64,000 nucleotides of DNA from Verrucomicrobiota bacterium (GCA_038748025.1 JBCDJI010000010.1:69453-133452), one strand, 5' to 3'; positions 35,752-63,270 are shown, numbered from the stretch's first letter. The notes: generated from the sequence alone by a model not told the origin. Translations and numbers: made by a program.

Positions 35752-37356
35752 CTATCTGGTCATCTGGGTTTGAACGAGACTTTCAATATGATTGCGTAAG
35801 ACACTTAACTTACAGGGCTTGTGTAGGATCAGGTCTACATTTTGTCTTTCGAGAGTCCTTTTTTTAGATTCGTCCAGATATCCGGTCATCATGATAATCG
35901 GAATTTTTTGGGAATACTTACGAATACAACCAATAAATTTTTCCCCGTTCATCTTCGGCATAGAAAAATCCGTGATTACCACATCATACTTTTCTTTAGC
36001 GAACTTAGTGATTCCCTCCACTCCATCACCTGCAAAATCAAAATTCATGCCCACTGCGTTCAGATATATCTGCATGGCCGTTCTGATTTTTTTTTCGTCT
36101 TCTACCAATAGCACCCGTATCGGACGACCCCTGGCAACCTCGGATCTCGCATCATCCGAAGACCAGCTGTCTGCGCATAACTCTTTTGCGGTAAGAGGAA
36201 AGTCGATACGGAATACCGTGCCCAGATCGATTTTGGATCGCACGCTGATTTCCGCTTTGTGCCGTTCCACAATTCCATATACGGATGACAGCCCCAACCC
36301 GCAGCCCCCCGTCATATCGCTACTCATTTTTTTGGTGCTAAAAAACGGCTCAAAACATTTTTGAGCTTCTCGTGCAGTCATTCCTATTCCATCATCTGAA
36401 ACTTCCAGGATGACCCTGTCATTTTTCACTGTAGTTGAGACGTTAATGGTTCCACTTCTATGGATAGCATCTGTCGCATTGAAGAGTAAATTGGTGATCA
36501 TCTCGCGGATTTCAGATTTAGATCCGAGGATTCTGGCTGCTGGATCCAGATTGAGCGTGACACTTATCTTTCGCCCTTCAGCCAGCGACTGATCCTTCCA
36601 TCTCGGGCGTGTCACCTGAAACACTTCCTGGATGCTTTCATTTATATCGATAGGTATATGTGAATCATCTGATTTCTTATCATCACTGAAACGCGACAAC
36701 CTCTTTGCCACCTCAGATGCATCGGAGGTCATCATCAGAACATTCTTAAGCATTTTGCCGGTGTCCTCTTCAGACAGTTTCAACTTCTGCGAATCCAGCA
36801 GAAGCTCCACGTTGGCCTGTATCGCTGCCAGGGCATTGTTGAAGTCATGTGCGATTCCGCTCGCCATCTGCCCGACCGCCTCGAGTCTTTCTTTTTGTAC
36901 CAGCCGGTCCTGGGCACCCTTCAGTTTTTGCATGGCTTCATTGAGTTCTGCATTCGACTCCACCAACTCTCTTTCTTTGATCATGCGTTTATTCGCATAG
37001 AGAATGGACCTTTTAAGCATGTCAATCGTCAGTGTTCCTTTGATCAGATAGTCATGTGCACCCAGTTCAAGCGCACTTTGGCTCACTTCCTCACTGTTAT
37101 CTCCGGTGAGCACAATGAGTATGGTATTGGATCCTCGGATTTTTTTTCTGAGCCTTGCAACAGACTGCGTTCCCGCGCTGTCCGGCAAGCCTAAATCCAG
37201 CAAGATAAGCTCATAACAGCCTTCTTCCAACAGCTGTTCCGCTTCCGACAAGGAAGTAGCCCGGCCCTTAACCTGATAATCCAAATCAATGCAATCAATC
37301 AGACGACTAACAATTTTTGCATCAATGGCAATATCTTCAATAACCAGGACATTCAT
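35752..37356 (-). CDS. Hybrid two-component protein REC-HisKA-HATPase-REC
   Basis: N-terminal receiver (ILLDLGLPD). H-box SGIAHDFNNAL. N/G boxes NLLFNATDA, DDGIGM, GLGLSSV. C-terminal receiver (VITDFSMPKMNG). Confidence 0.8.
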   Translation of the reverse strand: MNVLVIEDIAIDAKIVSRLIDCIDLDYQVKGRATSLSEAEQLLEEGCYELILLDLGLPDSAGTQSVARLRKKIRGSNTILIVLTGDNSEEVSQSALELGAHDYLIKGTLTIDMLKRSILYANKRMIKERELVESNAELNEAMQKLKGAQDRLVQKERLEAVGQMASGIAHDFNNALAAIQANVELLLDSQKLKLSEEDTGKMLKNVLMMTSDASEVAKRLSRFSDDKKSDDSHIPIDINESIQEVFQVTRPRWKDQSLAEGRKISVTLNLDPAARILGSKSEIREMITNLLFNATDAIHRSGTINVSTTVKNDRVILEVSDDGIGMTAREAQKCFEPFFSTKKMSSDMTGGCGLGLSSVYGIVERHKAEISVRSKIDLGTVFRIDFPLTAKELCADSWSSDDARSEVARGRPIRVLLVEDEKKIRTAMQIYLNAVGMNFDFAGDGVEGITKFAKEKYDVVITDFSMPKMNGEKFIGCIRKYSQKIPIIMMTGYLDESKKRTLERQNVDLILHKPCKLSVLRNHIESLVQTQMTR

Positions 37357-41866: not shown

Positions 41867-44107
41867 TTAAAGATCGACGCGGACTCCACCTGTCGCAGAA
41901 TTCACGATATAGCCTTCCTGTCCGATCTGCAGCTGCCAACCGAGAGTGAAATGAATGTTGTCTGCCTCGGTTAAGGAGGCATTGAACCCGGCCCCGATGA
42001 CTGCAAAATCTGCGTCTGCCTCGCGAGTTGAAACGGTGAAGCTGGCAAGTGCCGGATCGATAAAGGTGGTGGTTACATCTCTCGAATTATCCAGGAACTC
42101 GTGGTGCCAGGCAGCGCTGACATATGGAGCACACCAGCCCCAGTCACCCTCGAACGTCTTGGCCAGTTCAAAGCCAAGTTTCGTGCGTAAGGAATGTGCC
42201 GTCTGATCATCAAAACTGAGGCCCGCTCCGCCCAGTCCGGATTCCTGAAAGTCTTCCACATGCAGTAGAGAATACTGGAGACCCACCATCGGGGTTACGC
42301 GAATACTTCTATCCGCTCCAAAGTGAATGTCTCTGGAAAGTTCGAGCGCGGAGATGAACTGGTGCGCATCTGCATCACTCTCTCCGGTTCCAGTGAACGT
42401 TGGTGATACAATATTACGTTCGTTTTCATAAGCAGTATAACTGTATCCGAGGATGCCGCTGGCAAGCCAGTCACCCCACTGATAACGCGCATAGCCACCG
42501 ACCTGCGCACCATTACCCTCCATGTTTGAACCAAAGGCATCCACATCTGAATCGACACTCTGATATCCAATGTAGCCGCCTGCATTCAGTGCCTCAGAAA
42601 GGTTCTTGCCTGCCCCGATGATTACGGAAGTGCTGACGGTCTCACTTTCTGCCAGACCAGAAATGTCATCCTGTTGCGCGTAGGATCCGGAACCGATGAC
42701 AAATGCCTGCCAGTCGTAAAAAGGATCAAAACCGGAGGCTGCGGCAGTAGCCAGAGTCGCCGCTTCAAGCGAGCCCGTGTCCACCGAGACCAGGCCGGGA
42801 TTGCTCATCGCCAGTAAGTTCTGGTCCATGTTGACCAGCATGGGATCCAGATCCCGGGTATTCCACTGGAAGGCCGTGAGATCTGCCCCCATGGCTGCGT
42901 TACGTCCCTGATGGCGCAGCTGACTGAAAAAATCCCCGGTCATGCGGGTCGCATTATTGAACGCGACACTAGAAAATGCATTTTGATAGACCTGCCCACT
43001 GACTGTCTGGGCCAACTCATTAAGATCGGAAAGCGCGACGCTGTTCAACGCAATGAAGATGTCAATGAATTCAGTACCCGGAGCCGTCGTAACATTGTCC
43101 AGACTGCTGGCAAATCCACTGAGCCCGGGAGCTGTTAGCAGGCTGGAAAACGTCTGGAAACCGGTTACGTTGACGGTAGCAAAACTGTTTAGCGTTAGCG
43201 GACTACCCAGGATTGTAACTGTGCCTGAGCCTCCGGTCGCAATAAGCGCATTGGCGGTGGCCTGCGAAAACCCGCGCCAATTGTTGAAATTGATCGTGTC
43301 GGCTCCACCACCGCCATTGACTGTACCAGTCAGCAGCGAGTATCCATTCAGATTCACCGTATCGGCTCCACCACCACCATTGATCGAGTTACCGCCGCCG
43401 TTGGCTACGATGCGACTCGCAGTAAGGTTTAGGGTGTCATCATTACCAGCTAAACTTAATGCATTACCTCCACCCGATGTTGTAATCGTCGAGTTTATAA
43501 TCGTTACGACGTCGTTCCCGCCAGCGGTATGAATCCCCCGGCCGCCACCGGTTGTGGTAAAGGTGGTATCCGAAATATTTATAACGTCATTCCCTCCTCC
43601 GGCACTGATCCCATCTCCACCGCCCGCAACGGAGATTGTACCACCCGTAATGTTAAAAGTCTCTACATTGCCTGACCCGTTAAAGGCATCTCCACCACCA
43701 AAATTCACAGTAATGTTCCCTGAGCTCCAAACGGTAGCACCTCCCGTAATTGAAATCGCATGATCGCCCGTGCCGGAACCATTCAGAATGATATTGCCCA
43801 TGTGATTCACCGTACCTGAGCTGATACGCACTGCATCCTGTCCGGTAGTAGTAATTGTAGCTCCGCTGTTAATGGTAATGGTGCTGCCGCCATTGTTGGC
43901 ATCAATACCCCGAGTTCCGGTCGTAGTAATACTTCCGCCAACCGTTATGGTATCACCGGCCGCCAGATTGGCAGGCGCTCCTGTCAGGTCACCGGCATTG
44001 GTGGTCGTCGACGAAGTTCCTGCATCCTGAGTAAAATCGACAGCTTGCCCGCTGCTAATGCAGGCAAATATTAGCGCAATAGTAATGGCGTTGTAGCATT
44101 TCATCAT
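41867..44107 (-). CDS. Autotransporter outer-membrane protein with Gly/Thr/Asn-rich beta-helical passenger
   Basis: Signal peptide MMKCYNAITIALIFACISSGQA. The passenger has degenerate GGG(N/A)D..(I/L)N repeats. The C-terminal ~280 aa has alternating aromatic beta-barrel patterns. Confidence 0.75.
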   Translation of the reverse strand: MMKCYNAITIALIFACISSGQAVDFTQDAGTSSTTTNAGDLTGAPANLAAGDTITVGGSITTTGTRGIDANNGGSTITINSGATITTTGQDAVRISSGTVNHMGNIILNGSGTGDHAISITGGATVWSSGNITVNFGGGDAFNGSGNVETFNITGGTISVAGGGDGISAGGGNDVINISDTTFTTTGGGRGIHTAGGNDVVTIINSTITTSGGGNALSLAGNDDTLNLTASRIVANGGGNSINGGGGADTVNLNGYSLLTGTVNGGGGADTINFNNWRGFSQATANALIATGGSGTVTILGSPLTLNSFATVNVTGFQTFSSLLTAPGLSGFASSLDNVTTAPGTEFIDIFIALNSVALSDLNELAQTVSGQVYQNAFSSVAFNNATRMTGDFFSQLRHQGRNAAMGADLTAFQWNTRDLDPMLVNMDQNLLAMSNPGLVSVDTGSLEAATLATAAASGFDPFYDWQAFVIGSGSYAQQDDISGLAESETVSTSVIIGAGKNLSEALNAGGYIGYQSVDSDVDAFGSNMEGNGAQVGGYARYQWGDWLASGILGYSYTAYENERNIVSPTFTGTGESDADAHQFISALELSRDIHFGADRSIRVTPMVGLQYSLLHVEDFQESGLGGAGLSFDDQTAHSLRTKLGFELAKTFEGDWGWCAPYVSAAWHHEFLDNSRDVTTTFIDPALASFTVSTREADADFAVIGAGFNASLTEADNIHFTLGWQLQIGQEGYIVNSATGGVRVDL

Positions 44108-44256
44108 TTTCTCTCCGATACGGTTTTGCACCATTCCGTTCAACGAAGCAAGTACCATTCCAAAGACTTTGGTTTATCATATTAAATATCTATTATATTG
44201 TTAGGTGTGTGATCTGATAGCATTGACATTATCTGTCTTTCTGGCAATCGGTACCC

Positions 44257-49681: not shown

Positions 49682-51601
49682 TTAATAGCTCCTGCCGCTG
49701 GAGTCTGACTCTTCGTAGTAATTGATGAAAGCCTTGTTCAAAACCCGGTAACCGCCGGGAGTCGGATAATTTCCGGTGAAAAACCAGTCGCCCTCGTGCT
49801 CGGGCAGCGCTTCGTGCAGCGCATCGATGGTCTGGTAAATGACCTGCACCTGGCCCTTCCAGCGATTGTTCTCGGGGGTGACCAGTTTGGCAATGCGATC
49901 AGAAAGCTCCTCCTGTGAAAATCGCTCATAGATCCGGCGCACATGATTCTTGAGCTCCGTGTCCGGCCTGTCTTCCTGCTGAATGCAGTCCTGATAGACC
50001 TCACGGATCAACTCATGCTGACCACGTTCTTGGAGTAGATCGATCGCTGCCTGGAATGCAATGAATTTTCCTAATTGCGACATATCAATGCCATAGCAGT
50101 CTGGATAACGGATCTGTGGCGCCGTCGAGGCGATGACAATTTTCCGGGGGTTCAGGCGGGAAAGAATATTGATGACAGATCGCTTCAGCGTTGTTCCGCG
50201 CACGATCGAATCATCTACGCATACCAGGTGATCTTCCGCGGTAATGACACCGTAAGTAATATCATAGACGTGAGAAGCCATCTGATTGCGGTCTGACTCC
50301 TGGCTGATAAATGTACGGAGTTTAATGTCCTTATGCGCCACCTTTTCAGCCCGCGGCCACCCTTTGATAATGAGACTATCGAGTAATTCATCAGATAGCT
50401 CACCTTTATCCCGGGCATCTCTGATGATATCCCGCACCTGTAACCTGCGATTCAGACGCAATGCCTCGAGCATCCCGAAATATGCTGTTTCGGCAGTGTT
50501 GGGAATAAAACTGAAAACGGTGTGATCCAGATCGTGGTTAACGGCCTCCATGACAGCAGGGCCCAGCAGAGCACCCAGGCGTTTGCGGTCTTTATAAATG
50601 TCACTGTCATTACCACGTGAGAAATATATCCGTTCGAAGGAACAGGATTTACGCGCCTGATGCGGCTTGAAGTCCTCATGGATCAATTCACCATTCTTTT
50701 TCACTACCATCACGGTGCCGGGCTCAACCTCCTGCACATCTCCCCGCTCCAGGTCGAATACCGTCCTGAGCGGCGCACGCTCACTGGCAAAGGCGATGAC
50801 CTCATCATTCATAAAATAGTGGAATGGTCGTATCGCCAGGGGATCACGAAAAGCAAAGGCATCACCATTTCCTACCGCTCCCGCAATGGCATAGCCGCCG
50901 TCCCATCCGACCGAAGCATCCCGGATAATCTTTACCAGGTCGATATTGTCACTGATCTTTTCTGCAATCTGAGCTCCGGAAAGGTCTGAGCCTTTGACAT
51001 CACGGTAGATGCGATCATGTTCCTGATCCAAATGGTAACCAATACCTTCCAGTAACGTCTGCGTATCCGTATCAAAGATCGGATGCTGCCCATGATCAAT
51101 CAGGTCCTGATTGAGTTCCGAATTATTGGTGATGTTAAAGTTTCCGGCCAGAATCAAGTTTTTCGTGGGCCAGTTGCTGCGGCGAAAATAAGGATGGCAG
51201 GCACTGATATTGTATCCACCCGACGTTCCGTAGCGTAAATGACCAAGTAAAATTTCAGCAGCAAAATCAAAATTTTCCTTAAGCGTCTGAGTGAACTCAG
51301 GATGGATAATTCCTTTTTTTACCTTCTTGTTGTACTCTTTAAACAACGTGCTGAAGATCCTATCCAGCGGATTACGCTTCATGTTCCGCTCACGGAAAAT
51401 ATAGGGGTGTCCGGCAGGAACATGGAGTTTGATGGAGGCCACTCCTGCACCATCCTGACCACGATTATGCTGCTTCTCCATCAATAAATACAGCTTGAAG
51501 AACCCCCACAAGGGCGAGTCGTATTTTTCGTAGTAATACGACAGCGGCTTTAGCAGGCGAACCATAGCCACGCCGCACTCGTGCTTCAGCGGATCACTCA
51601 T
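49682..51601 (-). CDS. purF: Amidophosphoribosyltransferase (long, ~640-aa class II glutamine amidotransferase form)
   Basis: The N-terminal nucleophile context is KHECGVAMV, followed by HLRYGTSG. The PRPP-binding loop is VCVDDSIVRGTT. Confidence 0.85.
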   Translation of the reverse strand: MSDPLKHECGVAMVRLLKPLSYYYEKYDSPLWGFFKLYLLMEKQHNRGQDGAGVASIKLHVPAGHPYIFRERNMKRNPLDRIFSTLFKEYNKKVKKGIIHPEFTQTLKENFDFAAEILLGHLRYGTSGGYNISACHPYFRRSNWPTKNLILAGNFNITNNSELNQDLIDHGQHPIFDTDTQTLLEGIGYHLDQEHDRIYRDVKGSDLSGAQIAEKISDNIDLVKIIRDASVGWDGGYAIAGAVGNGDAFAFRDPLAIRPFHYFMNDEVIAFASERAPLRTVFDLERGDVQEVEPGTVMVVKKNGELIHEDFKPHQARKSCSFERIYFSRGNDSDIYKDRKRLGALLGPAVMEAVNHDLDHTVFSFIPNTAETAYFGMLEALRLNRRLQVRDIIRDARDKGELSDELLDSLIIKGWPRAEKVAHKDIKLRTFISQESDRNQMASHVYDITYGVITAEDHLVCVDDSIVRGTTLKRSVINILSRLNPRKIVIASTAPQIRYPDCYGIDMSQLGKFIAFQAAIDLLQERGQHELIREVYQDCIQQEDRPDTELKNHVRRIYERFSQEELSDRIAKLVTPENNRWKGQVQVIYQTIDALHEALPEHEGDWFFTGNYPTPGGYRVLNKAFINYYEESDSSGRSY

Positions 51602-51657: not shown

Positions 51658-52902
51658 CTATGTGCTGAGCAAATGATCTTCCCACTGGTGCTGCAGCCGG
51701 AATACTTTTTGCATAAAGTCCTGTTCCGTTGAAGGTAACAACGGGTCGTTTGCGTCCAGCGGTAACCGAATGGTCATCTTCTTCATATCCGTCTCACATT
51801 TTTCGAGATCAATGACGCCACCGTGATGATAAATCAGGAAGAACGCTCCCAGCAAGTGAACCCCGGGTTCAGAAGGTTTTTCGTTGTTAATATGAAACGG
51901 ATCAAAAAGCGGAATAATGTCATTTACTCCTGTCGTTGCAGACAGCCCATTCAGACTAATTGTCAGACAGTCGGCCTGTCTGGCCATTTCAAGCTGAAGC
52001 TTTTTACCCGTAGGCATAAAACAGACAGCATCTTTGAAAAGCATTTCAAACGCCTGATGTAACAATTTTTTATTTCCGGTCATCTGTAAATTCTCTTCCA
52101 GATCAGACAGGCTCAGATCAATGCCGGCTGCTTTCAGTTCTGAGGCTTTATTTTCAAGCGCAACCTTCAGCGCATCTGCCACATCAATGTTATCAGAAAA
52201 TTTTGTTTCCGTGATCGTGCTGTAACACTCTACTCCTTTGAGCATCTCTACAATCTGGCTCACCTGACTCTGGGCAGCCTCGTACAAGTCATGCCAGAAT
52301 GCCGGATCATTAATTTGAGCAGGGTTGCCTTCTGACTTAAGCTTTTCGGGAGCGAGATCTAAGAAGGCTCGCACGGCTGTCAGCGAATTGCGCACATGAT
52401 GACTGATCCCTGCGGATAAAACTCCCATACTCAAAACACGCTCGGTCAACACCGAACGGTGCATTGCTCCAATTTTTTCTCGCAGCAGGGCATTACGCTC
52501 TTTCTGGATAATATAAAATTCCAGTGCGCGCTTTACGGTAATTTCCAGATCCAGGTCTTCATATGGTTTGGAAAGATACTTATAAACTGCTCCATTGTTA
52601 ATGGCGGCTATGGTTGCATCCATATCCGCGTAAGCCGTAATTAAAATACGGATACAGTCCGGATAATTTTTGCGCACCGATTCCAGGAACTCTGTTCCGG
52701 ATATTTCCGGCATTCTCTGATCCGAGAGAATCACACCGATACGATCACCTTGCTCGGACAGAATCTTTTGTGCATCGGAAGCGCTGCTGGCGGTCAAGAC
52801 GTCAAACGTGGATTTAAAGTTTCTCTCAAAATACTTGAGTGTTAGTTCTTCATCATCTACCAGAAGCACTGCATATTCTTTATAATTGTAGAGAGCCTGC
52901 AT
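51658..52902 (-). CDS. Response regulator receiver fused to HisKA plus a degenerate (pseudo-)kinase domain
   Basis: The receiver has LLVDDEE...ILSDQRMPEISG...YLSKP (RpfG/PhcQ-like DQRMP class). The H-box is SAGISHHVRNSL. The C-terminal region lacks clear N/G1/G2 ATP-lid boxes. Confidence 0.7.
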   Translation of the reverse strand: MQALYNYKEYAVLLVDDEELTLKYFERNFKSTFDVLTASSASDAQKILSEQGDRIGVILSDQRMPEISGTEFLESVRKNYPDCIRILITAYADMDATIAAINNGAVYKYLSKPYEDLDLEITVKRALEFYIIQKERNALLREKIGAMHRSVLTERVLSMGVLSAGISHHVRNSLTAVRAFLDLAPEKLKSEGNPAQINDPAFWHDLYEAAQSQVSQIVEMLKGVECYSTITETKFSDNIDVADALKVALENKASELKAAGIDLSLSDLEENLQMTGNKKLLHQAFEMLFKDAVCFMPTGKKLQLEMARQADCLTISLNGLSATTGVNDIIPLFDPFHINNEKPSEPGVHLLGAFFLIYHHGGVIDLEKCETDMKKMTIRLPLDANDPLLPSTEQDFMQKVFRLQHQWEDHLLST

Positions 52903-52925
52903 AACTAATCTCTAACCATGCACGA

Positions 52926-55568
52926 CTATTTGGGAAATTCCATAATGAAAAGACATTTTTCTCCCGGAACGGATTCTACACGGATCGTTCCCGCGTGATT
53001 CAGAACAATACGATGACAAATACTCAGACCTAAACCTACCCCATGACCAACGGGTTTGGTCGTGAAAAAGGGGTCTAGCACCTGATCAACCTTTTCCGGC
53101 TCGATTCCTAACCCATTATCCTCCAAGAGGATCGTGATAGAATCGGCTTTTTCGCAGGAAGCAGCCACGCATATCCTGCCTTGCCAGTCAGATCCCTGTT
53201 GTGGCTGTTTATCTTTTAGACTGTCGATAGAGTTCTGCAGCATATTCAGTATCAGGTGAACCAACTGGTTGCGATTGGCTTTCAATTCAACCTGCCCAAC
53301 AGCACTGTAATCAAACTCAATCTTGTGCCCGACCAAATCGTGATTTACGAATCGTTCGCACTCGGCACAGATATCACCCAACAATAATGTTTCTATACTC
53401 TCCTGGTCGGGATGTGCAAAACGCTTGAGTCCGAACAAAATCGTTTTGGCCCGGTTTAACCCGATCGAAAGATCCTGTATAATTTCGGTGTAATCCTCAC
53501 TGTTCCTTTCCGTGGGCGTCAGGTTGTTCAGCGCTTTTACGGCACCCAGGCAAAAAGTGATCGGATTGTTCACTTCATGTAGCAAGCCGGCACTCAACTG
53601 CCCCAACGAACTGACTTTTGCCGACTGCACCAGTTGGGATTCCATCACTTTCAATTCCTCCAGGGCACGCTCTGCCTCTTCCTGTTTTTCCGCAGCAACC
53701 ATCTGTGCCTGGCGTAAGTGAATTAAATTAGCACAGCGGTTATGCAGCTCTTCAAAACCAAACGGCTTTGTCAGAAAATCAGTTGCTCCCGCAGAGAGTG
53801 CCTGAATTCGAGTTTTATGGTCGGCCCGCGCTGTCACCAGAATAATGGGGATGACTGCCGTGTGCAGATTATCTTTGAGTGACTGACATACTTCCACTCC
53901 GTCCAAATCCGGCATCATGTAGTCCAGCAGAATCAACTCGGGCAGGTGTTGTATCGCAAGCCTTACTGCTTCAGATCCTGTTTGTGCTTTAATGATATGA
54001 TATCGTTTTCCTAACTGATCCGCCAGATACTCCCGCATTTCCGGCTCATCATCTGCGACCAGAACCGTCGGTGCTTCGGATGCAACCTGCGCCTGCTCAC
54101 GGACCACAGGCTGATCCCATTCTACCGGCAGCGGCTCCGAATAATTCGGAGCTGGTGTTCTATATTCAGGCGGTTTTTTTGAATATCCTGTCTGAGTCTG
54201 CAGATCGGCTGCTGTCGGCAGGGGAAAGCGAACGCTGAAACAACTGCCTTGTCCCAGCGTGCTGCTGACACTTACGTCACCTCCATGTGCTGTTACCCAC
54301 TGTTTGACCAAAGCCAACCCCAGACCCGCACCCTGATGCTTACGAGTAGCTCCTCCGTCTCCCTGCCAGAACGGATCAAAAATGTGCGGCAGCTGTTCAC
54401 CGGAAATACCTGGACCATCGTCTTCCACACAAAACAGAATATGAGAGTCATCCTGTTCCACACTCAACTTCAGCGTTCCACCAATATCCATGAATTTCAA
54501 AGCATTGAAAATCAAGTTCAGGAGCACTTTTTCACATTTTGCAATATCTGCCAGAAACCAGATAGGCTCTGACGACAGACTGAGATCTATGGTGATCTTT
54601 TTCTTATCTGCGAACGATTTCACAGAACTCGCCAAGCCCTGCAGCAATAAGTTTCCATCTACACGGGTAGGAATAATCAGTGTCTGGTCTGCCTGTGATT
54701 TTGCCAGAGCTAACAGCTCATCAATCAGTTTTAGCAATCTGTCAGCATTGCGGTACATCACCTGAAAAATTTCAATTTCTGCTGCGGGTGTCGATTTGGC
54801 CTTTGCCTCCGCCAGCAACTGCTCGATCGGCGCCATAATCAACGTTAGTGGTGTCCTTAATTCGTGACTGATGTTAGCAAAAAACTGACTTCTGGCCCGG
54901 TCCATTTCATTAAGCTGGTAGTTCTTCTCTTCCAGCTGCCTGCGACTGGCATCCAGGGCCACTCGGTTTGTGTATTCCCGTTGCCGCAAGCGGTTCAGCA
55001 CGTAATTCCCGGTGACGGTTGTGATACCGGTCAGTACGATAAAATAGGTGTTATTAAAAAACAGAGCGTGATCTATTTTCCCATGTGCCAGGCAGGCCGC
55101 CAGATACATACTGGTTGTTGTGGCAAAAGCGATCATGCTCTCCCGGAAAGTTACTTGAGCCACCCAACAGACCGTCACCAGCACCAGGTTCAATCCTGCA
55201 TAATAAGGAGATGCTGCACCTTCCGATAAATAGATCATGAGTGAGATAAATGCAGTGGGAATGCAAAACCAGGCAAAGCTCAAATAACGGTAATATCGGC
55301 GACTGACCCTGGGGAACCAAAGCAGGCCCAGGCAACAGGCCGCCAGTAGACTGCTGATCAGGCGCAAAGATAAGAAAAGCCAAAAAAATTCCGGATAAAC
55401 AAAGTAGTCTAATGATGCACCAGCCGGCATGAGCACCATTACTAATACAGAGGCAATCCGGGAATTGGATATCTGGTCGCGGCGATGGTATGCCAGAAAT
55501 CGGAGGCGTGTTCGAAGTGTCAACTCAGGCGACTCACCGATTAATTTTTGTTTCAGTGCCTCCCACAT
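52926..55568 (-). CDS. Membrane hybrid sensor kinase with two transmitter modules (6-7 TM, HisKA-HATPase, REC, HisKA-HATPase)
   Basis: First H-box FFANISHELRTPL, with DDGPGI and GAGLGLALV. Receiver VLVADDE...LLDYMMPDLDG. Second H-box LSAGLLHEVNNPI, with MLQNSIDS, DNGLGI and GVGLGLS. Confidence 0.8.
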   Translation of the reverse strand: MWEALKQKLIGESPELTLRTRLRFLAYHRRDQISNSRIASVLVMVLMPAGASLDYFVYPEFFWLFLSLRLISSLLAACCLGLLWFPRVSRRYYRYLSFAWFCIPTAFISLMIYLSEGAASPYYAGLNLVLVTVCWVAQVTFRESMIAFATTTSMYLAACLAHGKIDHALFFNNTYFIVLTGITTVTGNYVLNRLRQREYTNRVALDASRRQLEEKNYQLNEMDRARSQFFANISHELRTPLTLIMAPIEQLLAEAKAKSTPAAEIEIFQVMYRNADRLLKLIDELLALAKSQADQTLIIPTRVDGNLLLQGLASSVKSFADKKKITIDLSLSSEPIWFLADIAKCEKVLLNLIFNALKFMDIGGTLKLSVEQDDSHILFCVEDDGPGISGEQLPHIFDPFWQGDGGATRKHQGAGLGLALVKQWVTAHGGDVSVSSTLGQGSCFSVRFPLPTAADLQTQTGYSKKPPEYRTPAPNYSEPLPVEWDQPVVREQAQVASEAPTVLVADDEPEMREYLADQLGKRYHIIKAQTGSEAVRLAIQHLPELILLDYMMPDLDGVEVCQSLKDNLHTAVIPIILVTARADHKTRIQALSAGATDFLTKPFGFEELHNRCANLIHLRQAQMVAAEKQEEAERALEELKVMESQLVQSAKVSSLGQLSAGLLHEVNNPITFCLGAVKALNNLTPTERNSEDYTEIIQDLSIGLNRAKTILFGLKRFAHPDQESIETLLLGDICAECERFVNHDLVGHKIEFDYSAVGQVELKANRNQLVHLILNMLQNSIDSLKDKQPQQGSDWQGRICVAASCEKADSITILLEDNGLGIEPEKVDQVLDPFFTTKPVGHGVGLGLSICHRIVLNHAGTIRVESVPGEKCLFIMEFPK

Positions 55569-55585
55569 AACACGAGAGCATCAAA

Positions 55586-56992
55586 TCAAGGCCGGCGCAC
55601 TTCCAGAAAAATATTGAATCCGGTATCATCGGCAATGATCTTGCAGTTTTCTGCTTTGGCATCGTCCGGTTTGAGTCTCATCAGGCCCTTTGAGTCGCGA
55701 TAGATCAGATGCCATTCCATCATATATTCCATCATTTTGATGGATGGATTTGATGATTCCACGTTAGTAACCACCAGTAGTCCGCCAGGTGCAACCATAC
55801 TGTATAAAATTTCGGTCAGCCTTTTCGCAACCCGGTCTGAAAGATAATCAAACAACCCTGCACAGTAAACGAAGTCAAATTTCTCGTCTGTTTTAGTTCC
55901 TGATTTATCTTTCAAAATCTGATGCACGGAACGCTGCATCGTGCGGATGGTGGTTTTCCGGGCATAACGCACTTTGAGTTCCTGCACAATCTCTGTCGTT
56001 GCATCGATCGTTTCCTTGTTAAAATCCAATAAAGTCAATTCGGCACGCTCACACAGATCGTCCTGTGAGAGAAATCTTTGCACTTCCTGGGCCGGTCCAC
56101 AGCCTAAATTGAACATCCGAACCGGACGGTGGAGTTTCATCATTCTGCGGGTTTCCTGATTCAAATAATCCGCGAGCATCGAGACGCGGTTGCGGTGTGC
56201 CTGCCCAGCTGGTAGTGCGAGAAAATTTAAATTCAATAATTTGGCAAACAAAGATGGCCCTTCAACCGGATCCCGCAGAAGCATGTTGACCATTTCGTAG
56301 TCACCTGCATATCCCAGTGGTTTGGTATAGGTTCTCCATAAAAATGGTGAGCATAAGACTAGCGGATGCAATAGCCGCCGAACATAAACACGATGTGCCG
56401 GTTCTATATCTTTTTCAACTCCGCCAGCCACTGACTCAAATCGGTCGAACAATTCCTGCACGGTTGGAACAATCAAGTCTGATAATTCTCGTATTACCTC
56501 CACTTCCCGGTTTTGAGTTTGCTGCTTATCCCGTTGCCGAAGTGAAAATTCCACCTGCTCCATCCACCGGTGCAGGTCTGTCAAAAATGTGTGCATATCC
56601 GCCACCAGTAACTTGAACTCCGGCACCACAATCTGCACTTTTTTCCATTCCTGAAAAAAATCCAGATATTCACTTTTAATTTGTAAAGGGCCGGAACTGG
56701 TTTCGAGTAGATCAATATCCAGCCAGTCTTCTTCCAGCGTAGCTTCACAAACCAACACGGTTCCCGTGTTGACCATAGCACTTACCACAGCCCGGCCGGA
56801 ATATGAGGCACGACTACGGATAAAGATCTGGAAATCAGCCAGCACCTCCGAGATCTGTAAGATGCTGAAGGGATTATATACTTCAAAGGAAACAACGTAG
56901 CGCGTCATTCTTAGACAAACACCGCGAACTGGAGAACCCTGGCTGTTTTTGCAGACGATAAAGCTTTCGTTGGTAATATCTTTATCTGCCAT
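55586..56992 (-). CDS. Class I SAM-dependent methyltransferase with ~230-aa N-terminal accessory region (PhcB-like candidate signal synthase)
   Basis: Motif I is VRMFNLGCGPAQE. Motif II is FDFVYCAGLFDYL. Motif III is PGGLLVVTN. The protein is 468 aa and embedded among REC/HK genes. Confidence 0.6.
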   Translation of the reverse strand: MADKDITNESFIVCKNSQGSPVRGVCLRMTRYVVSFEVYNPFSILQISEVLADFQIFIRSRASYSGRAVVSAMVNTGTVLVCEATLEEDWLDIDLLETSSGPLQIKSEYLDFFQEWKKVQIVVPEFKLLVADMHTFLTDLHRWMEQVEFSLRQRDKQQTQNREVEVIRELSDLIVPTVQELFDRFESVAGGVEKDIEPAHRVYVRRLLHPLVLCSPFLWRTYTKPLGYAGDYEMVNMLLRDPVEGPSLFAKLLNLNFLALPAGQAHRNRVSMLADYLNQETRRMMKLHRPVRMFNLGCGPAQEVQRFLSQDDLCERAELTLLDFNKETIDATTEIVQELKVRYARKTTIRTMQRSVHQILKDKSGTKTDEKFDFVYCAGLFDYLSDRVAKRLTEILYSMVAPGGLLVVTNVESSNPSIKMMEYMMEWHLIYRDSKGLMRLKPDDAKAENCKIIADDTGFNIFLEVRRP

Positions 56993-57031
56993 ACACCTTG
57001 ATCATGATTACAAAGAGGAATCTACGCTAAA

Positions 57032-58129
57032 TCATTCCAACGGCAAATTTACGACAAACGTCGTGCCTTGGCCTTCCGTCGAAGTAAAACATACCGTACC
57101 GTCATGTGTTTTAACCAACCGCTCCAGCAGCAGCAGCCCCATACCATGATGCCTTTTTTCCTGTTTGGTCGTCCAGTGTTTGCAAAAAAGCTTTTTCATG
57201 TTCTCCGGAGATATCCCCTTGCCGTTATCAGATACCAGTATCAGACATCTCTGCTGTTTTATTCTGAACTGAATACTCAGTCTCCTTTTTCCTGCCATTT
57301 CATCCATGGCGGCGGCTGCATTTTCCAGTAAATTGGTTAATATCCTGCCAAACGGTATAACCGGTATCCCCACGATGACATCATCATCCACCGCGCGATG
57401 ATTCCAGACAATTTCTATTCCATCCCGATGATGGAGCAAGGCCACGGTTTCTTTAGCCGCATGAACCAGCTCTTTCAGTGGGGCAGGGTCATCACCTAGC
57501 GCTTTGTCAATCTCACGGTCTCGCCAGTGTTCCAGCAGACGGTTAATGTATTCAACCTGCCCCAGTAGCGTTGCTAGAAATATATCCGGCTTATCAGCAA
57601 CATTCTGCTGAATCTGGCTGTAGACGGAAAATTCCAAAGTGGTTAATCCATTACTCAAATCATGGATCAGATCGATCGTTTCAGAATCACTTTGCTGCTT
57701 CGCGTCTGTTTGTGCACTGTATCCGTTGGTGGGGCGGCGGCTTTTCCGGATCGCTTTAGAAACACAATCCAGCAGATATTTGGGACGGATCGGCTTTTCC
57801 AGATAATTTAGGGCCCCGCGACGCAGCGCTTGTACGGCGTCATCATAATTAGGATACCCGGTAAGCACCAGCACCGGAATCTCAGCATCATAATCATGAA
57901 TTTGTTTTAACCCGGAAAGTCCCACCTGATCCGGAAGGCACATATCCAATATTACAAGATGCGGCTTGGACTGATAAATGTGCAGCAGTCCATCCCGCAG
58001 TGTATTAGCGATACTGACATGATAAGTTCCCGAGAGTGCAAAACTAAAGACACGACTCACTTTTACATCATCGTCAATGATCAAAATGGAATTTCGATCT
58101 TTTATATGATTAGTGTCCAGTGCTTCCAT
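57032..58129 (-). CDS. Receiver domain fused to a histidine-kinase transmitter (REC-HK, PhcR-like architecture)
   Basis: Receiver ILIIDDD...VILDMCLPD...YLEKP. H-box IDLIHDLSNGL. N box LTNLLENAAAAM. G boxes SDNGKGI and HGMGLLL. Confidence 0.75.
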   Translation of the reverse strand: MEALDTNHIKDRNSILIIDDDVKVSRVFSFALSGTYHVSIANTLRDGLLHIYQSKPHLVILDMCLPDQVGLSGLKQIHDYDAEIPVLVLTGYPNYDDAVQALRRGALNYLEKPIRPKYLLDCVSKAIRKSRRPTNGYSAQTDAKQQSDSETIDLIHDLSNGLTTLEFSVYSQIQQNVADKPDIFLATLLGQVEYINRLLEHWRDREIDKALGDDPAPLKELVHAAKETVALLHHRDGIEIVWNHRAVDDDVIVGIPVIPFGRILTNLLENAAAAMDEMAGKRRLSIQFRIKQQRCLILVSDNGKGISPENMKKLFCKHWTTKQEKRHHGMGLLLLERLVKTHDGTVCFTSTEGQGTTFVVNLPLE

Positions 58130-58226: not shown

Positions 58227-60488
58227 TTACACAGCCATGCACCTGGAAATCGCCCCACGATAACTGTCCTGGAGGTGGGATAAGCGAAATTCCAGTGTGC
58301 CAGATTTTAATATGACTCGCGATAACTTGTGCTCAGCAGTAACACCAATCTTTTGTGCATTCACCTTTAATCCACTAAACTGAGCAAGCAAGGCTTCTGT
58401 TTGGGTAGCCTCCGTGGTCAAGATGGCGCGGCCTTGTGTTTCGTTGAAAAGCAAGATATCAGGTCGCAAACAAGAAGTAGCAAAATCCACTTCATACCCG
58501 ATACCACTGTTCACCGCTGATTCTGTCAGCGCCAGTGCCAGCCCGCCGTCACTGATATCGTGCGCACTTTGGACCATACCCTGATGAATGACAGCACGCA
58601 CCGCATTCTGAAATCTAACCTCTGCTTCCAGATTCATTTCCGGCGGCATTCCTTTTTTAATTCCGTGGATTTCATATAAGAAAGCAGAAGCTCCCATCTC
58701 ACTGCCTTCGCCGCCGACCAGCACGATGTCGTGACCGGTCGACTGGAAATCCGAAGGAGTAATATGTTCGCGTTCTTCGATCAATCCTACCATAGCCATG
58801 ACCGGAGTCGGATCGATGGAACATTTCGGGTTCTTATTATAAAGACTGACATTTCCACCGGTGACAGGCGTTGCAAACGCACGGCAAGCTTCAGAGAGTC
58901 CTTCCACTGATTCACGGAATTGCCAGAAAACTTCCGGATCATGTGGATTTCCAAAATTCAGATTATCGGTGCAGCCGATCGGCAGGGCACCCGACATGGT
59001 GCAGTTCCGGGCCGATTCCGCGACAGCAATCATTGCCCCTCGGCGTGGATTCAGCGAACAATAGCGCCCATTACAATCCGCGGCCATGGCAATAAAGCGT
59101 TCGCCTCCGCTCTCGGTTTCAATGCGGATTACGGCAGCATCACCGCCCGGCACCAATACCGTATTCTTCTGCACCTGATGATCATACTGGCGGTAAACCC
59201 ATTCTTTCGAAGCGAGGCTGGGAGAATTCATGAGCGTGACCCAGTGCTGGGCCAGTTCCTCGGGCGCAGGCGAAGAGGGGAACTCTGCTTCGTAAGAGAA
59301 GGACTGAAGTGTCTTGAGGCCAGACGGCTCACGAACTTCACGATGATAGAGTGGTGCATCATCGGCCAACTCACGTGAGGGCACATCAGCTACCACATCA
59401 TCGCCAACCTTGATTACCGTCCGGCCGGTGTCCGTTACGTAGCCGATCTCAGCAGCATCCAGATCCCATTTGGCAAAGATGCGGCGCACCTCATCTTCAA
59501 AGCCTTTCTTTACGATGATCAGCATCCTTTCCTGCGATTCAGAGAGCATGATTTCATACGGCGTCATCCCGGTTTCACGCTGCGGCACCAGATTGAGGTC
59601 TACTTCAATGCCGGAACCTCCACGGCTGGCAGTTTCAATCGTCGAACAGGTCAGTCCGGCAGCACCCATGTCCTGCACGCCGACGACGGCCTCCGGATGT
59701 TGAAATAACTCCAGGCACGCCTCCAGCAACAGCTTCTCCATGAATGGATCCCCCACCTGAACTGCCGGACGATCTTCTTTGGATTCTTCTGTCAGGTCGC
59801 GTGAGGCGAAGGCGGCACCGGCCAGACCGTCCCGTCCGGTTTTGGCACCGACATAGAACACCGGATTGCCTACCCCGGATGCCGCTCCACGGCGGATCTG
59901 ATCATGCCGCAGGATGCCGAGATTGAAGGCATTTACCAACGGATTTCCATTGTAAGAGGGATCAAAGACGACTTCTCCCCCAACAGTCGGAACACCAATA
60001 CAGTTGCCGTAGTGGGCAATACCTTCCACTACTCCGGCCAGCAGCACGCGGTTGCGTTTGGCCTCCGCCGAGTCGCCACAGATCGGACCGAAGCGCAGTG
60101 AGTTCAAATTAGCGACCGGGCGTGCCCCCATGGTAAAGATATCGCGCAGGATACCGCCGACGCCGGTCGCCGCTCCTTGAAACGGCTCTACTGCACTCGG
60201 GTGGTTGTGGGATTCAATTTTAAAGCAGACGGCCATATTGCCGCCAATGTCGAGCACCCCGGCGTTTTCCTCTCCAGCTTTTACCAGAATCTTATCTCCT
60301 TCGGTCGGGAATTTTTTCAGTTCGGCACGTGAATTTTTATACGAGCAGTGCTCACTCCACATGACCGAAAAGATTCCGAGCTCGGTAAAGTTAGGCTCAC
60401 GTCCGAGAATCTCGAGGATGTGTTCATACTCCTCCGGTGTAATGCCGTGTTTATCGATCAGTTCAGGGGTAATTGCGGGATCTTTCAT
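58227..60488 (-). CDS. purL: Phosphoribosylformylglycinamidine synthase subunit PurL
   Basis: [14 protein letters not shown]...[25 protein letters not shown]. 753 aa. Confidence 0.95.
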
Positions 60489-60492
60489 TTTT

Positions 60493-60929
60493 AACCACTA
60501 ATGGACACTAATTTTCACTAATTAACGAACCACTCTCTTCCATTCTAGTTGGGGGTGGCTGGCAAAATTAATCAGGTAGCCAACTTTCATGCCTGCTGCT
60601 TTGAGGTAATTAAATAACGGAGCAAAATGCTCCGGTGCCAGTTTTTGAACAGCCTTTAGTTCTACTGTAATTTTTTCACTTACGATCAAATCCGGTTCGT
60701 AAGTCTGATTTAAAGAGCGCCCTTTATAATAAAGTTTTAACTTCGGCTTGGATTTGAAGGAGATATTCTGAATATCCAGCTCGTGTTCCAGGCATTCCTG
60801 ATAAACAGCTTTCAGAAAACCACTTCCTTTTTCATTATAGACTTCAAAAGCGGCAGCCATTAGTTCGTAGCCTTCCTGGTTGTATAAATTTTCCCCGTCA
60901 TTAGTGGCCATTAGTGTTAATCAGTGGTT
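60493..60929 (-). mobile_element. GxxExxY cassette 2: gene bounded by inverted arrays of 3 phased CACTAAT heptamers, inserted between purQ and purL
   Basis: Arm 60493..60523 is aacCACTAATggaCACTAATtttCACTAATt. Arm 60900..60929 is ATTAGTGgccATTAGTGttaATCAGTGgtt. The phasing is exactly 10 bp. Confidence 0.4.
60522..60911 (-). CDS. GxxExxY-family protein (PD-(D/E)xK nuclease-like), copy 2
   Basis: EVYNEKGSGFLKAVYQECL is the motif with E replaced by K. EPDLIVSEKITVELKA gives PD...ELK. 129 aa. Confidence 0.85.
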   Translation of the reverse strand: MATNDGENLYNQEGYELMAAAFEVYNEKGSGFLKAVYQECLEHELDIQNISFKSKPKLKLYYKGRSLNQTYEPDLIVSEKITVELKAVQKLAPEHFAPLFNYLKAAGMKVGYLINFASHPQLEWKRVVR

Positions 60930-61607
60930 TGATAACAGTGAATCGAAGAGTTTCTTGCCGTTGTCAGATCCAAGCAGGATTTCAGCGGCACGCTCCGGGT
61001 GGGGCATCATGCCGAAGACGTTGCCTTCACGGTTGCAGACGCCGGCAATGTTGGATACCGAGCCGTTGGGATTTGCTGCTTCGATCGCTTCCCCGTTTTC
61101 ATCCACGTAACGGAAAATGACCTGCCCATAAGATTCCATTTCTTTGAGCGTATCCTGATCGACAGTATAGTTGCCCTCTCCGTGGGCGATGGGGATCTGA
61201 AGCAGCTCCCCATCGTGCATGTGGGCAGTGATTTTAGTCCGGCTGTTGTCTACCCGCAGCGTCACTGTTTCACAGATGAAGTGCATATCGCGGTTTCGCA
61301 CCAACGCTCCCGGCAGCAGTCCCGCTTCACATAAGATTTGAAACCCGTTACATATCCCGATGATGGTTTGTCCATTGGCGGCCGCTTTTTTGACTGCATG
61401 CATAATTGGAGAAAAGCGGGCAATGGCACCGCATCGCAGATAATCCCCATAGGAAAATCCACCCGGGACGATGATGGTTTCATCGGGCTCCAGCGTTTCT
61501 TCTTTGTGCCAGACCATACGTGCCGGCTGGCCCATGACATCCCGGACGGCCCGCAGGCAATCCTGGTCACAATTGGAACCGGGAAATTGGAGAACAGCAA
61601 ATTTCAT
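60921..61607 (-). CDS. purQ: Phosphoribosylformylglycinamidine synthase glutaminase subunit PurQ
   Basis: FAVLQFPGSNCD...GICNGFQIL...MPHPER. The last 2 codons and the stop lie in the repeat arm. Confidence 0.95.
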   Translation of the reverse strand: MKFAVLQFPGSNCDQDCLRAVRDVMGQPARMVWHKEETLEPDETIIVPGGFSYGDYLRCGAIARFSPIMHAVKKAAANGQTIIGICNGFQILCEAGLLPGALVRNRDMHFICETVTLRVDNSRTKITAHMHDGELLQIPIAHGEGNYTVDQDTLKEMESYGQVIFRYVDENGEAIEAANPNGSVSNIAGVCNREGNVFGMMPHPERAAEILLGSDNGKKLFDSLLSNH

Positions 61608-62040: not shown

Positions 62041-63270
62041 CTAGAACTTATATCCCACGCTCGCCGTCAGGGTATGAAAGGTATATTCATAATCTCCATC
62101 CACAGACTGGCCTGCTGCACTGGGAGTGCTGCCGGAGACGGTTGTATCACCATTGATAAACTGATACGACAATGCATAGGTCCAATTCTTTCGTTCATAA
62201 GACCCGCCGATACTAAATGCATGCAGCGGAGTATCTGGAACCGCCGGGTTGTAGTTGATATCCTTGACGTTGTTTTCCGTATAAAAATAGCCCCCACTCA
62301 GCGTAAATCCGTTATCAAAATAGTAACTGAGTCCAAATTTATACATAAATCCGGATTTGTAATCAAAAGGGACGATTAGATTGGCGTTCCCAGGCGTCGG
62401 ACGCTCCAGGATGACATCTCCAATTTCATCCCAATTGGTGTATTCCAGATTGAATTCGACATTCCATTTAGGCGTCGGCCGGTAGGAAACACCGAAGGCA
62501 AAGGTGCTGGGAAAACGCACTTCGGCTTCAGAGTCCTCGACAGGGGAGATCGGACGAAGCATCAGATCTCCTTCATGGTCCACTTTCGTGGCACTGCGAT
62601 AATTAAAGCCAAACGACCATTCAGGAACAGGTTGCCAAAGCACCCCGGCACTGAATCCGAAGTCGAAGCCGTTTCCATCAAAACTGAGCTCGTCGGCAGA
62701 ACTGGTTCCTCCGGGAAATAGGCCATTCTTTAACTGGATCTGGCTGTAGTTGATGGTGGGCCCCATGGCAATCGACAACCCCTCAGTAACTTCCCAGGCA
62801 ACAACCGGATTAACACTGGTATACTGTAATGAAGCTTTGGTCACAAAAGTGCGAAAACCGGTGTCCTCCGGCCAGCTGAGTTTGAGACCGTAGCTATTGT
62901 TAATACCGAGGCCAAAAGCTAGCGGTAAGCTTTCGGGGTTATAGGTATAATAGAAATGAGGCACCGGCACAATGCGAAGATCGGTTTCCGGACTGGCTCC
63001 GGTCGGGCTGGTATACTGTGAATTAAGATAAACATTATAACTCCCGAAGGAAAGCTGGTGGCCTTCCAGTTGCGTAATACCAGCAGGATTGTAATAGACT
63101 GCAGAGGGATTGTCAGCCGTCGCGACGAATGCATTCCCGCGAGCGATGGCTTCAGCATCCTGATTGGGAACTCGGTATCCCAGTGACCAGGCGCTGTGCT
63201 GTAGACTGACAGTGCCGGCAAAAGTGATGAAAAAACAAACCCACGATATAAAATGCTTACGGATACTCAT
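62041..63270 (-). CDS. Outer-membrane transport protein, OmpP1/FadL/TodX family (hydrophobic compound channel)
   Basis: Signal peptide. N-terminal GYRVPNQDAEAIARGNAFVATADNPSAVYYNPAG hatch region. C-terminal aromatic terminus ...SVGYKF. Confidence 0.8.
   Translation of the reverse strand: MSIRKHFISWVCFFITFAGTVSLQHSAWSLGYRVPNQDAEAIARGNAFVATADNPSAVYYNPAGITQLEGHQLSFGSYNVYLNSQYTSPTGASPETDLRIVPVPHFYYTYNPESLPLAFGLGINNSYGLKLSWPEDTGFRTFVTKASLQYTSVNPVVAWEVTEGLSIAMGPTINYSQIQLKNGLFPGGTSSADELSFDGNGFDFGFSAGVLWQPVPEWSFGFNYRSATKVDHEGDLMLRPISPVEDSEAEVRFPSTFAFGVSYRPTPKWNVEFNLEYTNWDEIGDVILERPTPGNANLIVPFDYKSGFMYKFGLSYYFDNGFTLSGGYFYTENNVKDINYNPAVPDTPLHAFSIGGSYERKNWTYALSYQFINGDTTVSGSTPSAAGQSVDGDYEYTFHTLTASVGYKF

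Follow-up and report, generated by a model that had tools for sequence, protein, structure and literature searches.

A candidate signalling cassette of the Phc type, with autoinducer synthase and sensor, from a member of the Verrucomicrobiota

In Ralstonia, the methyltransferase PhcB makes methyl 3-hydroxymyristate or methyl 3-hydroxypalmitate, and the sensor kinase PhcS senses this signal (PMC8578825). PhcR, encoded in the same phcBSRQ set, combines a receiver (REC) with kinase domains and has no DNA-binding domain (PMC8578825). It has been called the prototypical REC-controlled kinase, in which phosphorylation of the receiver releases the catalytic domains, i.e., the mechanism of LvrB (PMC13269768). 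Here, we analyse a stretch of 64,000 nucleotides from a Verrucomicrobiota bacterium (GCA_038748025.1, JBCDJI010000010.1:69453-133452), hereafter called the window. Four of its genes, all located on the minus strand at 51658-58129, encode in this order a REC-kinase of 365 amino acids (aa), a methyltransferase of 468 aa that depends on S-adenosylmethionine (SAM), a sensor kinase of 880 aa and a receiver protein of 414 aa. We consider it probable that they form a divergent Phc-type autoinducer synthase and sensor cassette. Homology, gene order and the motifs kept or lost are established in this study, whereas the product and a role in sensing cell density are what we infer.

We found no paper in the literature linking phcB to Verrucomicrobia, and a review from 2026 confines its treatment of Phc signalling to the R. 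solanacearum species complex. LvrB of Leptospira and PhcR, both REC-controlled kinases, show the domain order REC-DHp-CA. The 365-aa protein shares this order, as does the 880-aa protein in its C-terminal half, and receiver phosphorylation would probably release the catalytic domains of these REC-kinases as it does in LvrB. Against the NCBIfam models the cassette reaches 276 bits for LvrA (cut-off 1200) and 64 bits for LvrB (cut-off 500); with scores so far under the cut-offs, the proteins are therefore not Lvr orthologues. Unlike in LvrB and PhcR, the REC-kinase unit of the 880-aa protein is preceded by a complete sensor kinase, with which it forms a single chain. The alpha-hydroxyketone systems CqsA/CqsS of Vibrio and LqsA/LqsS of Legionella would be alike in working, although they bear no sequence relation to the cassette. 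There, the synthase of a hydrophobic, fatty-acid-derived signal adjoins a six-helix, short-loop sensor kinase that binds the signal in the membrane. The synthase, however, is an acyl-CoA transferase dependent on pyridoxal phosphate and not a methyltransferase, and the sensor domain belongs to a different family.

Relatives of PhcB, PhcS and PhcR in the cassette

The 468-aa methyltransferase aligns with PhcB of Ralstonia syzygii at 40% identity over 454 aa (E 7e-123, residues 15-466 of the window protein) and with Cupriavidus PhcB at 38% identity (E 1e-118). The copy in a phcBSRQ-like operon on a Paraburkholderia graminis plasmid is likewise 40% identical. Pfam places the class I methyltransferase domain at residues 292-429, and the PhcB alignments also take in the N-terminal 230 residues. 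Judged by these alignments, the protein is a full-length PhcB homologue, a point that a first-pass annotation of the window, made from the sequence alone, could not confirm. An alignment of 93 sequences from both clades, the window clade and PhcB, contains 65 invariant columns, which include the SAM motifs and KPLGYAGDYEMV. Among the invariant residues are N295, C298, G299, P300, A301 and E303 of motif I, D323-F324, Y376-C377-A378-G379 and K224-P-L-G-Y-A-G-D231. The phylogeny proposed in the first-pass annotation was built as a rough neighbour-joining tree of 117 full-length family members, in which the window protein and PhcB share one subclade of 46 leaves. The protein therefore does not belong to an unrelated clade of O-methyltransferases.

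The family is large, with more than 5,700 relatives in a large protein collection and 658 clusters at 50% identity (E <= 1e-30). The best named relatives are Verrucomicrobiota, namely Methylacidiphilales metagenome-assembled genomes (MAGs) and Pelagicoccus; MAGs labelled Omnitrophica and Chloroflexi also contribute named members. In IMG, many homologues carry the KEGG name phcB, 'extracellular factor (EF) 3-hydroxypalmitic acid methyl ester biosynthesis protein'. Since such IMG/KEGG labels are transitive, the reference phc loci were compared directly. Matches on Rhizobium plasmids (24-33% identity) were rejected, as they cover only the C-terminal part and represent a different, shorter family.

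An AlphaFold2 model of the 468-aa protein, computed from the family alignment, has a mean predicted local distance difference test score (pLDDT) of 86.5 and consists of a barrel, a long helical part and a Rossmann domain, with the limits given in Table 1. A Foldseek search of the PDB with this model matched only generic class I methyltransferases, and we know of no PhcB structure. The best solved match to the helical and Rossmann parts is 3OCJ, an uncharacterised Bordetella parapertussis protein from structural genomics (E 2e-11, target-normalised TM-score TMt 0.61), which superimposes with a root-mean-square deviation of 3.6 Å over 269 columns at 16% identity. Unlike the window methyltransferase, 3OCJ lacks the N-terminal barrel, and it has no known function.

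The N-terminal barrel deserves a closer description. Pfam and NCBIfam scans of the first 234 aa gave nothing useful and no Pfam PilZ match. This is the accessory region of about 230 aa noted in the first-pass annotation, where Pfam recognises nothing. The structure prediction proposed there for this region yields a six-stranded barrel (pLDDT 87.7 when modelled alone). Its best TM-scores are to the PilZ domains of the cyclic di-GMP (c-di-GMP) receptors BcsA, YcgR, MrkH and PP4397 (query-normalised TMq 0.56-0.62), with weak E-values of only 0.02-0.2 and with flavin-reductase split barrels interleaved. The c-di-GMP-binding motifs of PilZ domains, RxxxR and D/NxSxxG, are missing both in the window methyltransferase and in PhcB. 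An hhalign comparison of the N-domain family with a PilZ alignment of only four sequences found no match and is too weak to count either way. Outside the window, five long family members (P0388, P0372, P0386, P0395 and P0310; 594-673 aa) carry an extra N-terminal regulatory domain before the family barrel. In four of them it is a canonical Pfam PilZ domain above cut-off, with RxxxR and D/NxSxxG, and in the remaining one a REC domain. The family barrel of the PilZ-bearing proteins keeps N-F-S-x-x-G where the window protein has R28-M-T-R-Y-V33.

The barrel is thus probably PilZ-like in ancestry and fold, and it is part of PhcB itself. The first-pass annotation had offered a PilZ-like barrel as an alternative to PhcB affinity; the likeness is probable, while the alternative falls away, since PhcB has the same domain. 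Binding of c-di-GMP by the window barrel is not expected because the motifs are missing, the E-values of the fold matches are not significant and no Pfam PilZ match exists. The PilZ and REC fusions suggest that in some lineages signal synthesis could be gated by c-di-GMP or by phosphorylation, and the N-terminal domain of PhcB, as a probable decayed PilZ domain, hints at former regulation of signal synthesis.

In the 880-aa protein, Pfam finds HisKA-HATPase_c, then REC, then HisKA-HATPase_c again. The first ~195 aa, by sequence and hydropathy, form about six hydrophobic helices with short loops, which fits the polytopic sensor with 6-7 transmembrane (TM) helices described earlier. By itself, the TM region is 30% identical to R. 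syzygii PhcS in BLASTP (E 6e-19), SPYYAGLN being common to both, and in hhalign the sensor-domain family profile matches the PhcS profile with a probability of 100% (E 7.7e-39, 184 columns). Precomputed Pfam annotation (E <= 1e-5) assigns the sensor domain MASE8 (PF20968) both to the window kinase (54909-55568) and to Cupriavidus PhcS (L005, 8421-9080). The kinase core of PhcS matches the second core better than the first, in profile-profile comparison (E 7e-70 versus 8e-29) as well as in BLASTP (118 versus 72 bits). Two loci of the same methyltransferase clade (L168 and L169) encode a short kinase of 465 aa, with the sensor joined directly to a core of the second type that is 39-41% identical to core 2 and 23-25% to core 1. 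Its domain arrangement makes the 880-aa protein a kinase of the PhcS type in which an inserted HisKA-ATPase-REC relay separates the sensor from the PhcS-type core. H235, D549, H664 and every N and G1 residue of both cores are invariant in 40 family members; the relay is therefore under selection. A simple fusion of PhcS and PhcR was rejected, because it is the C-terminal core that resembles PhcS and because PhcR is matched better by the 414-aa protein. The 880-aa protein offers a case found in nature of a single chain in which a sensor kinase would feed a REC-controlled kinase.

For the 414-aa protein, Pfam reports REC, a weak HisKA and, only at E 0.11, HATPase_c. The REC domain (aa 12-120, Asp61 in SDQRMPE, DQRMP type) is followed by a DHp-like region with His168 and by a degenerate ATPase-like domain. 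For comparison, the open reading frame (ORF) L059:8509-9870 served as Ralstonia PhcR. The family profile matches the PhcR profile with E 2.9e-56 over 358 columns, spanning REC, DHp and the ATPase-like domain. With PhcQ only REC and linker align (160 columns), and the C-terminal domains share just a 45-column match at their start, which is still linker. The REC domain is 47% identical to that of PhcR, 40% to that of PhcQ and 22-30% to the other receivers of the cassette. According to these comparisons, the 414-aa protein is a full-length PhcR relative and corresponds to PhcR, not to PhcQ; no gene of the cassette is a candidate for a PhcQ equivalent. Within the family, the REC residues D16, D17, D61, T89 and K112 are invariant, while the H-box His (His168) is kept in 24 of 34 sequences and the N-box Asn in 6 of 34. 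In the window copy this Asn is missing; the copy is also the only family member without the G1 D-x-G, so that 'REC-pseudokinase' is a fair description.

The 365-aa protein has a REC domain (aa 15-122, Asp62), a DHp His156 in IHDLSNGL and intact N, G1 and G2 boxes. Of 46 metagenome loci, only 8 have a similar gene directly upstream; the three closest genomic relatives (L007-L009) also have one. This REC-kinase is an accessory component, found only in some relatives.

The first-pass annotation had described four tightly spaced, co-oriented genes with gaps of 17-39 bp, and its ORF coordinates are retained here: the genes lie exactly there, with gaps of 39, 17 and 23 bp from the 365-aa to the 414-aa gene. 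Its further readings are also recovered, i.e., a REC-transmitter fusion in the 365-aa protein (Pfam REC and HATPase_c), the motifs NLGCGPAQE, FVYCAGLFDYL and PGGLLVVTN in the class I methyltransferase, and a DQRMP receiver with HisKA and a degenerate ATPase domain, in which the N-box Asn and the G1 DxGxG are missing. A promoter and terminator scan of the window detected no terminator-like site in any of the three gaps. For promoters the scan was uninformative, promoter-like sites being rarer in the window than in shuffles.

Gene order and the comparison with phcBSRQ

We compared 80 metagenome loci of 46-61% identity. In 70 of the 71 loci with enough sequence, two with overlapping start codons included, the gene immediately after the methyltransferase encodes the sensor kinase, and a 414-like gene comes after the kinase in 29 of 29. 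Nearly all complete kinases in these loci have the long form (36 of 38, 883-941 aa), the other two being short. Four further relatives, from a Methylacidiphilales MAG, Pelagicoccus mobilis, an ENA contig and an unclassified bacterial MAG (L007-L010), show the same cassette among wholly different flanking genes. The neighbourhood, on whose conservation in relatives the first-pass annotation had made its proposal depend, is thus kept amid unrelated flanks. In a distant member of only 33% identity, the methyltransferase is again followed by a PhcS-like TM kinase and then by a REC-pseudokinase without the H-box His. As the order of methyltransferase, kinase and PhcR-like gene is conserved even here, the three-gene core is ancient.

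Pelagicoccus mobilis, a member of the Verrucomicrobiota with the full four-gene cassette, is presumably cultured, as it is a named species; if it can be grown, the signalling idea becomes directly testable. In this organism the cassette is followed by a single-domain receiver (L008, 12353-12736). In another relative (L010, 12399-14440), the genes after it encode a response regulator of the sigma-54 type (REC-Sigma54_activat-HTH_8) and a small HATPase protein. These genes are candidate outputs that the window lacks. Neither a DNA-binding output nor a transcription factor is encoded among the four genes of the window cassette, and its regulated targets must therefore be encoded elsewhere.

The reference loci comprise 80 Burkholderiales loci from a genome scan, including Ralstonia syzygii of the R. 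solanacearum species complex. The Cupriavidus locus has the textbook order phcB-phcS-phcR-phcQ, encoding a methyltransferase (463 aa), a MASE8 kinase (443 aa), a REC-kinase (381 aa) and a REC protein (332 aa). The order phcB-S-R-Q is found in all Burkholderiales loci that are long enough except L033, where PhcR and PhcQ match only partly, and L057, where PhcR is reduced to a receiver. The only full-length match on a plasmid is the methyltransferase of Paraburkholderia graminis pPHS1_P (L001), which lies in a methyltransferase-kinase-response regulator-response regulator operon. The plasmid is conjugative and 494 kb long, and it carries this phc-like set at 432595-436970 of the record. Besides the methyltransferase, the set encodes a kinase of 445 aa and two response regulators, a truncated one of 134 aa that occupies the position of PhcR and one of 344 aa; a gene of the cyclopropane-fatty-acyl-phospholipid synthase family is located about 1 kb upstream.

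In the comparison with phcBSRQ, the homology of the window methyltransferase to PhcB runs from end to end and takes in the N-terminal barrel and the helical domain. The gene after it codes for a kinase that shares the MASE8-type 6-TM sensor and the 'HE(V/I/L)NNP' core of PhcS, and the third for a REC-DHp-ATPase-like protein whose relation to PhcR likewise extends throughout. The order of synthase, sensor and PhcR-like gene is identical. Among the differences, PhcS has ~442 aa with the sensor joined directly to one core, in contrast to 880 aa and an inserted relay. The PhcR-like protein is without the N-box Asn and, in this genome, without the G1 box as well, and the H-box His varies within its family. 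PhcQ is missing, an optional extra REC-kinase lies upstream, and the cassette belongs to the Verrucomicrobiota. The component match to phcBSRQ that was drawn in the first-pass annotation therefore stands for PhcB, for the sensor and core of PhcS and for PhcR, but not for PhcQ, which has no counterpart, and the 880-aa kinase departs from it by its inserted relay.

Proposed signalling route and competing explanations

In the route that we propose, the methyltransferase would transfer a methyl group from SAM to a lipid carboxylate, most likely that of a 3-hydroxy fatty acid, giving an ester that would be membrane-permeant and diffusible. The ester would partition into the membrane and be read by the MASE8-type sensor of the 880-aa kinase, which would set autophosphorylation at His235, and the phosphate would pass to Asp549 within the same protein. 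The phosphorylated internal receiver may then switch on the second, PhcS-type core (His664) in an LvrB-like manner. From His664 the phosphate would be handed to Asp61 of the 414-aa PhcR-like protein and, in the window lineage, perhaps also to Asp62 of the 365-aa kinase, a presumed lineage-specific extra branch. Because its kinase-like domain has lost ATP-binding residues, the 414-aa protein probably works through contacts with other proteins or takes up phosphate as a sink.

Several points weigh against this proposal. An identity of 38-40% to PhcB is insufficient to fix the substrate of the putative synthase; even among close variants of PhcB the chain length differs. Domain order is the sole basis for the direction and the partners proposed for phosphotransfer. 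A local hmmscan gave no MASE8 match for the window kinase or for Cupriavidus PhcS, even at E <= 10. This mismatch with the precomputed annotation is either a library-version or a filter discrepancy, and the sensor homology consequently rests on BLASTP, hhalign and the precomputed annotation. PhcQ, the main transducer in R. pseudosolanacearum (PMC8578825), is absent from the window cassette. PhcR retains every kinase motif, unlike the 414-aa protein, which is a pseudokinase. The window cassette has no linked PhcA-type regulator, although no search with a PhcA sequence was made, and we know of no PhcA for this lineage. In Ralstonia, phcA lies apart from phcBSRQ, which makes its absence here uninformative. 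With PhcQ absent and no PhcA-type regulator linked, the downstream logic must differ from that of Ralstonia.

The strongest competitor, which we nevertheless consider unlikely, accepts the phcBSR homology and takes the methylated lipid as a private cue: it would report pools of fatty-acid or lipid A precursors or the state of the envelope, and the cassette would be a homeostatic circuit instead of a density sensor. A sensor wholly embedded in the membrane, with short loops, suits any membrane lipid, and the PilZ or REC input domains on relatives of the methyltransferase point to metabolically or second-messenger-gated production. The location of the cassette among housekeeping genes (purS/Q/L and a purF-like gene) and the lack of a linked transcription factor fit as well. 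In the only characterised members, however, the product is secreted and acts between cells (PMC8578825), and the tight pairing of synthase and receptor genes across very distant lineages is the usual signature of an autoinducer and its receptor.

Quite improbable in our view is a methyltransferase that modifies a protein of the pathway, e.g., the kinase or a receiver in a CheR-like adaptation, or that serves as a regulatory partner via its PilZ-like barrel. Such a role could be read from weak Pfam similarity, short of the threshold, to the SAM-binding domain of CheR (the window protein gives E 3.7e-4, and one family member scores 26 bits where 27 are required) and from the N-terminal beta-barrel, which is of a protein-interaction type. 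Yet the CheR matches stay under the curated cut-off and reflect generic Rossmann similarity, the best structural neighbours are small-molecule methyltransferases, and the residues invariant between PhcB and the window clade argue for the same chemistry, PhcB being documented as the synthase of a methyl ester signal (PMC8578825). That a generic small-molecule O-methyltransferase, unrelated to Phc, merely happens to lie beside ordinary two-component genes is scarcely credible: the NCBI labels are indeed only 'class I SAM-dependent methyltransferase' and 'ATP-binding protein', and no NCBIfam model reaches its cut-off for any cassette protein, but the full-length homology to PhcB, that of the sensor domain to PhcS and the order kept in nearly every locus amid unrelated flanks contradict it, and the identity spread of the metagenome loci excludes a single recently transferred element.

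Surroundings of the cassette and wider meaning

Table 1. Genes and domains of the cassette in window coordinates.
Feature	Position	Strand	Evidence
REC-controlled histidine kinase, 365 aa, accessory cassette member	57032..58129	-	Pfam REC and HATPase_c; motifs read in the sequence; like gene in closest relatives
PhcB-family SAM-dependent methyltransferase, 468 aa, proposed signal synthase	55586..56992	-	identity to PhcB; 65 invariant columns
N-terminal six-stranded beta-barrel, aa 10-86, degenerate PilZ-like, without RxxxR or D/NxSxxG	56735..56965	-	AlphaFold2 models; fold matches; motif of distant members
Helical middle domain of the methyltransferase, aa 102-286, with invariant KPLGYAGDYEMV motif	56135..56689	-	AlphaFold2 secondary structure; invariant columns K224-V235
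Class I Rossmann methyltransferase domain, aa 291-466, SAM motif I NLGCGPAQE	55595..56122	-	Pfam Methyltransf_12/25/31/11/23; AlphaFold2 and Foldseek class I matches
Sensor kinase, 880 aa: MASE8-type 6-TM sensor, HisKA-ATPase, REC, PhcS-type HisKA-ATPase	52926..55568	-	Pfam; precomputed MASE8; PhcS alignment including TM region
Membrane sensor domain, aa ~30-192, ~six TM helices, conserved SPYYAGLN	54993..55481	-	BLASTP and profile-profile match to PhcS sensor; hydropathy
First kinase core, aa 225-451, His235 in SHELRTPL, part of inserted relay	54216..54896	-	Pfam HisKA and HATPase_c; H235, N355, D383/G385/G387 invariant (40 members)
Internal receiver, aa 502-611, Asp549	53736..54065	-	Pfam REC; D549, K601 invariant in 40 members
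Second kinase core, aa ~650-880, His664 in LLHEVNNPI, PhcS-type	52929..53621	-	profile-profile match to PhcS core; H664, N779, D817/G819/G821 invariant
PhcR-like receiver and pseudokinase, 414 aa	51658..52902	-	family profile against PhcR profile; REC identity; residue conservation

The cassette is flanked by purS-purQ-(PD-(D/E)XK gene)-purL on one side and by a purF-like gene on the other. The 129-aa gene of the PD-(D/E)XK nuclease superfamily (60522-60911, minus strand; PDDEXK_3, E 1.6e-37) lies between purQ (60921-61607) and purL (58227-60488) and interrupts an otherwise ordinary purS-purQ-purL run. Directly downstream of the cassette, a gene of 639 aa (49682-51601, minus strand) shows a weak PurF match at residues 92-358 (TIGR01134, 125 bits against a cut-off of 350) and is far longer than this match. 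It may encode a divergent amidophosphoribosyltransferase or another class II amidotransferase. About 4 kb upstream of the cassette, an outer-membrane transporter of the FadL/TodX family for hydrophobic compounds is encoded (62041-63270, minus strand). It was considered as a porin for the signal or for fatty acids but rejected as part of the cassette, being separated from it by purS/Q/L and absent near the cassette in L007-L010.

Two further genes of the window, both on the minus strand, are recorded here. A signalling protein of 534 aa with HisKA, HATPase_c and two receiver-domain matches (35752-37356) lies in the stretch of the window with the lowest guanine-cytosine content (0.449, 36-38 kb), and a protein of 763 aa (41867-44158) has a C-terminal autotransporter beta-domain (E 5.7e-50) and no recognised passenger domain.

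That homologues carry the automatic IMG label phcB was already known; new is the conservation of the synthase-sensor-PhcR-like core across a large family. We put forward, as a tentative idea, that PhcB-type methyltransferases, MASE8-type kinases and PhcR-like pseudokinases together represent an ancient and widespread form of cell-to-cell signalling by lipid methyl esters in Verrucomicrobiota and other, largely uncultured lineages. The Phc system of Ralstonia and Cupriavidus would then be a late, simplified branch, and some of the synthases would be gated by c-di-GMP (PilZ) or by phosphorylation (REC). For MASE8, an uncharacterised sensor domain, the cassette suggests a class of ligand. As the same cassette is found in many uncultured bacteria, fatty-acid-methyl-ester signalling may extend far past plant pathogens. 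If the product is indeed a diffusible ester, abundant bacteria of soil, freshwater and sea would gain a quorum-sensing chemistry that is new to those lineages.

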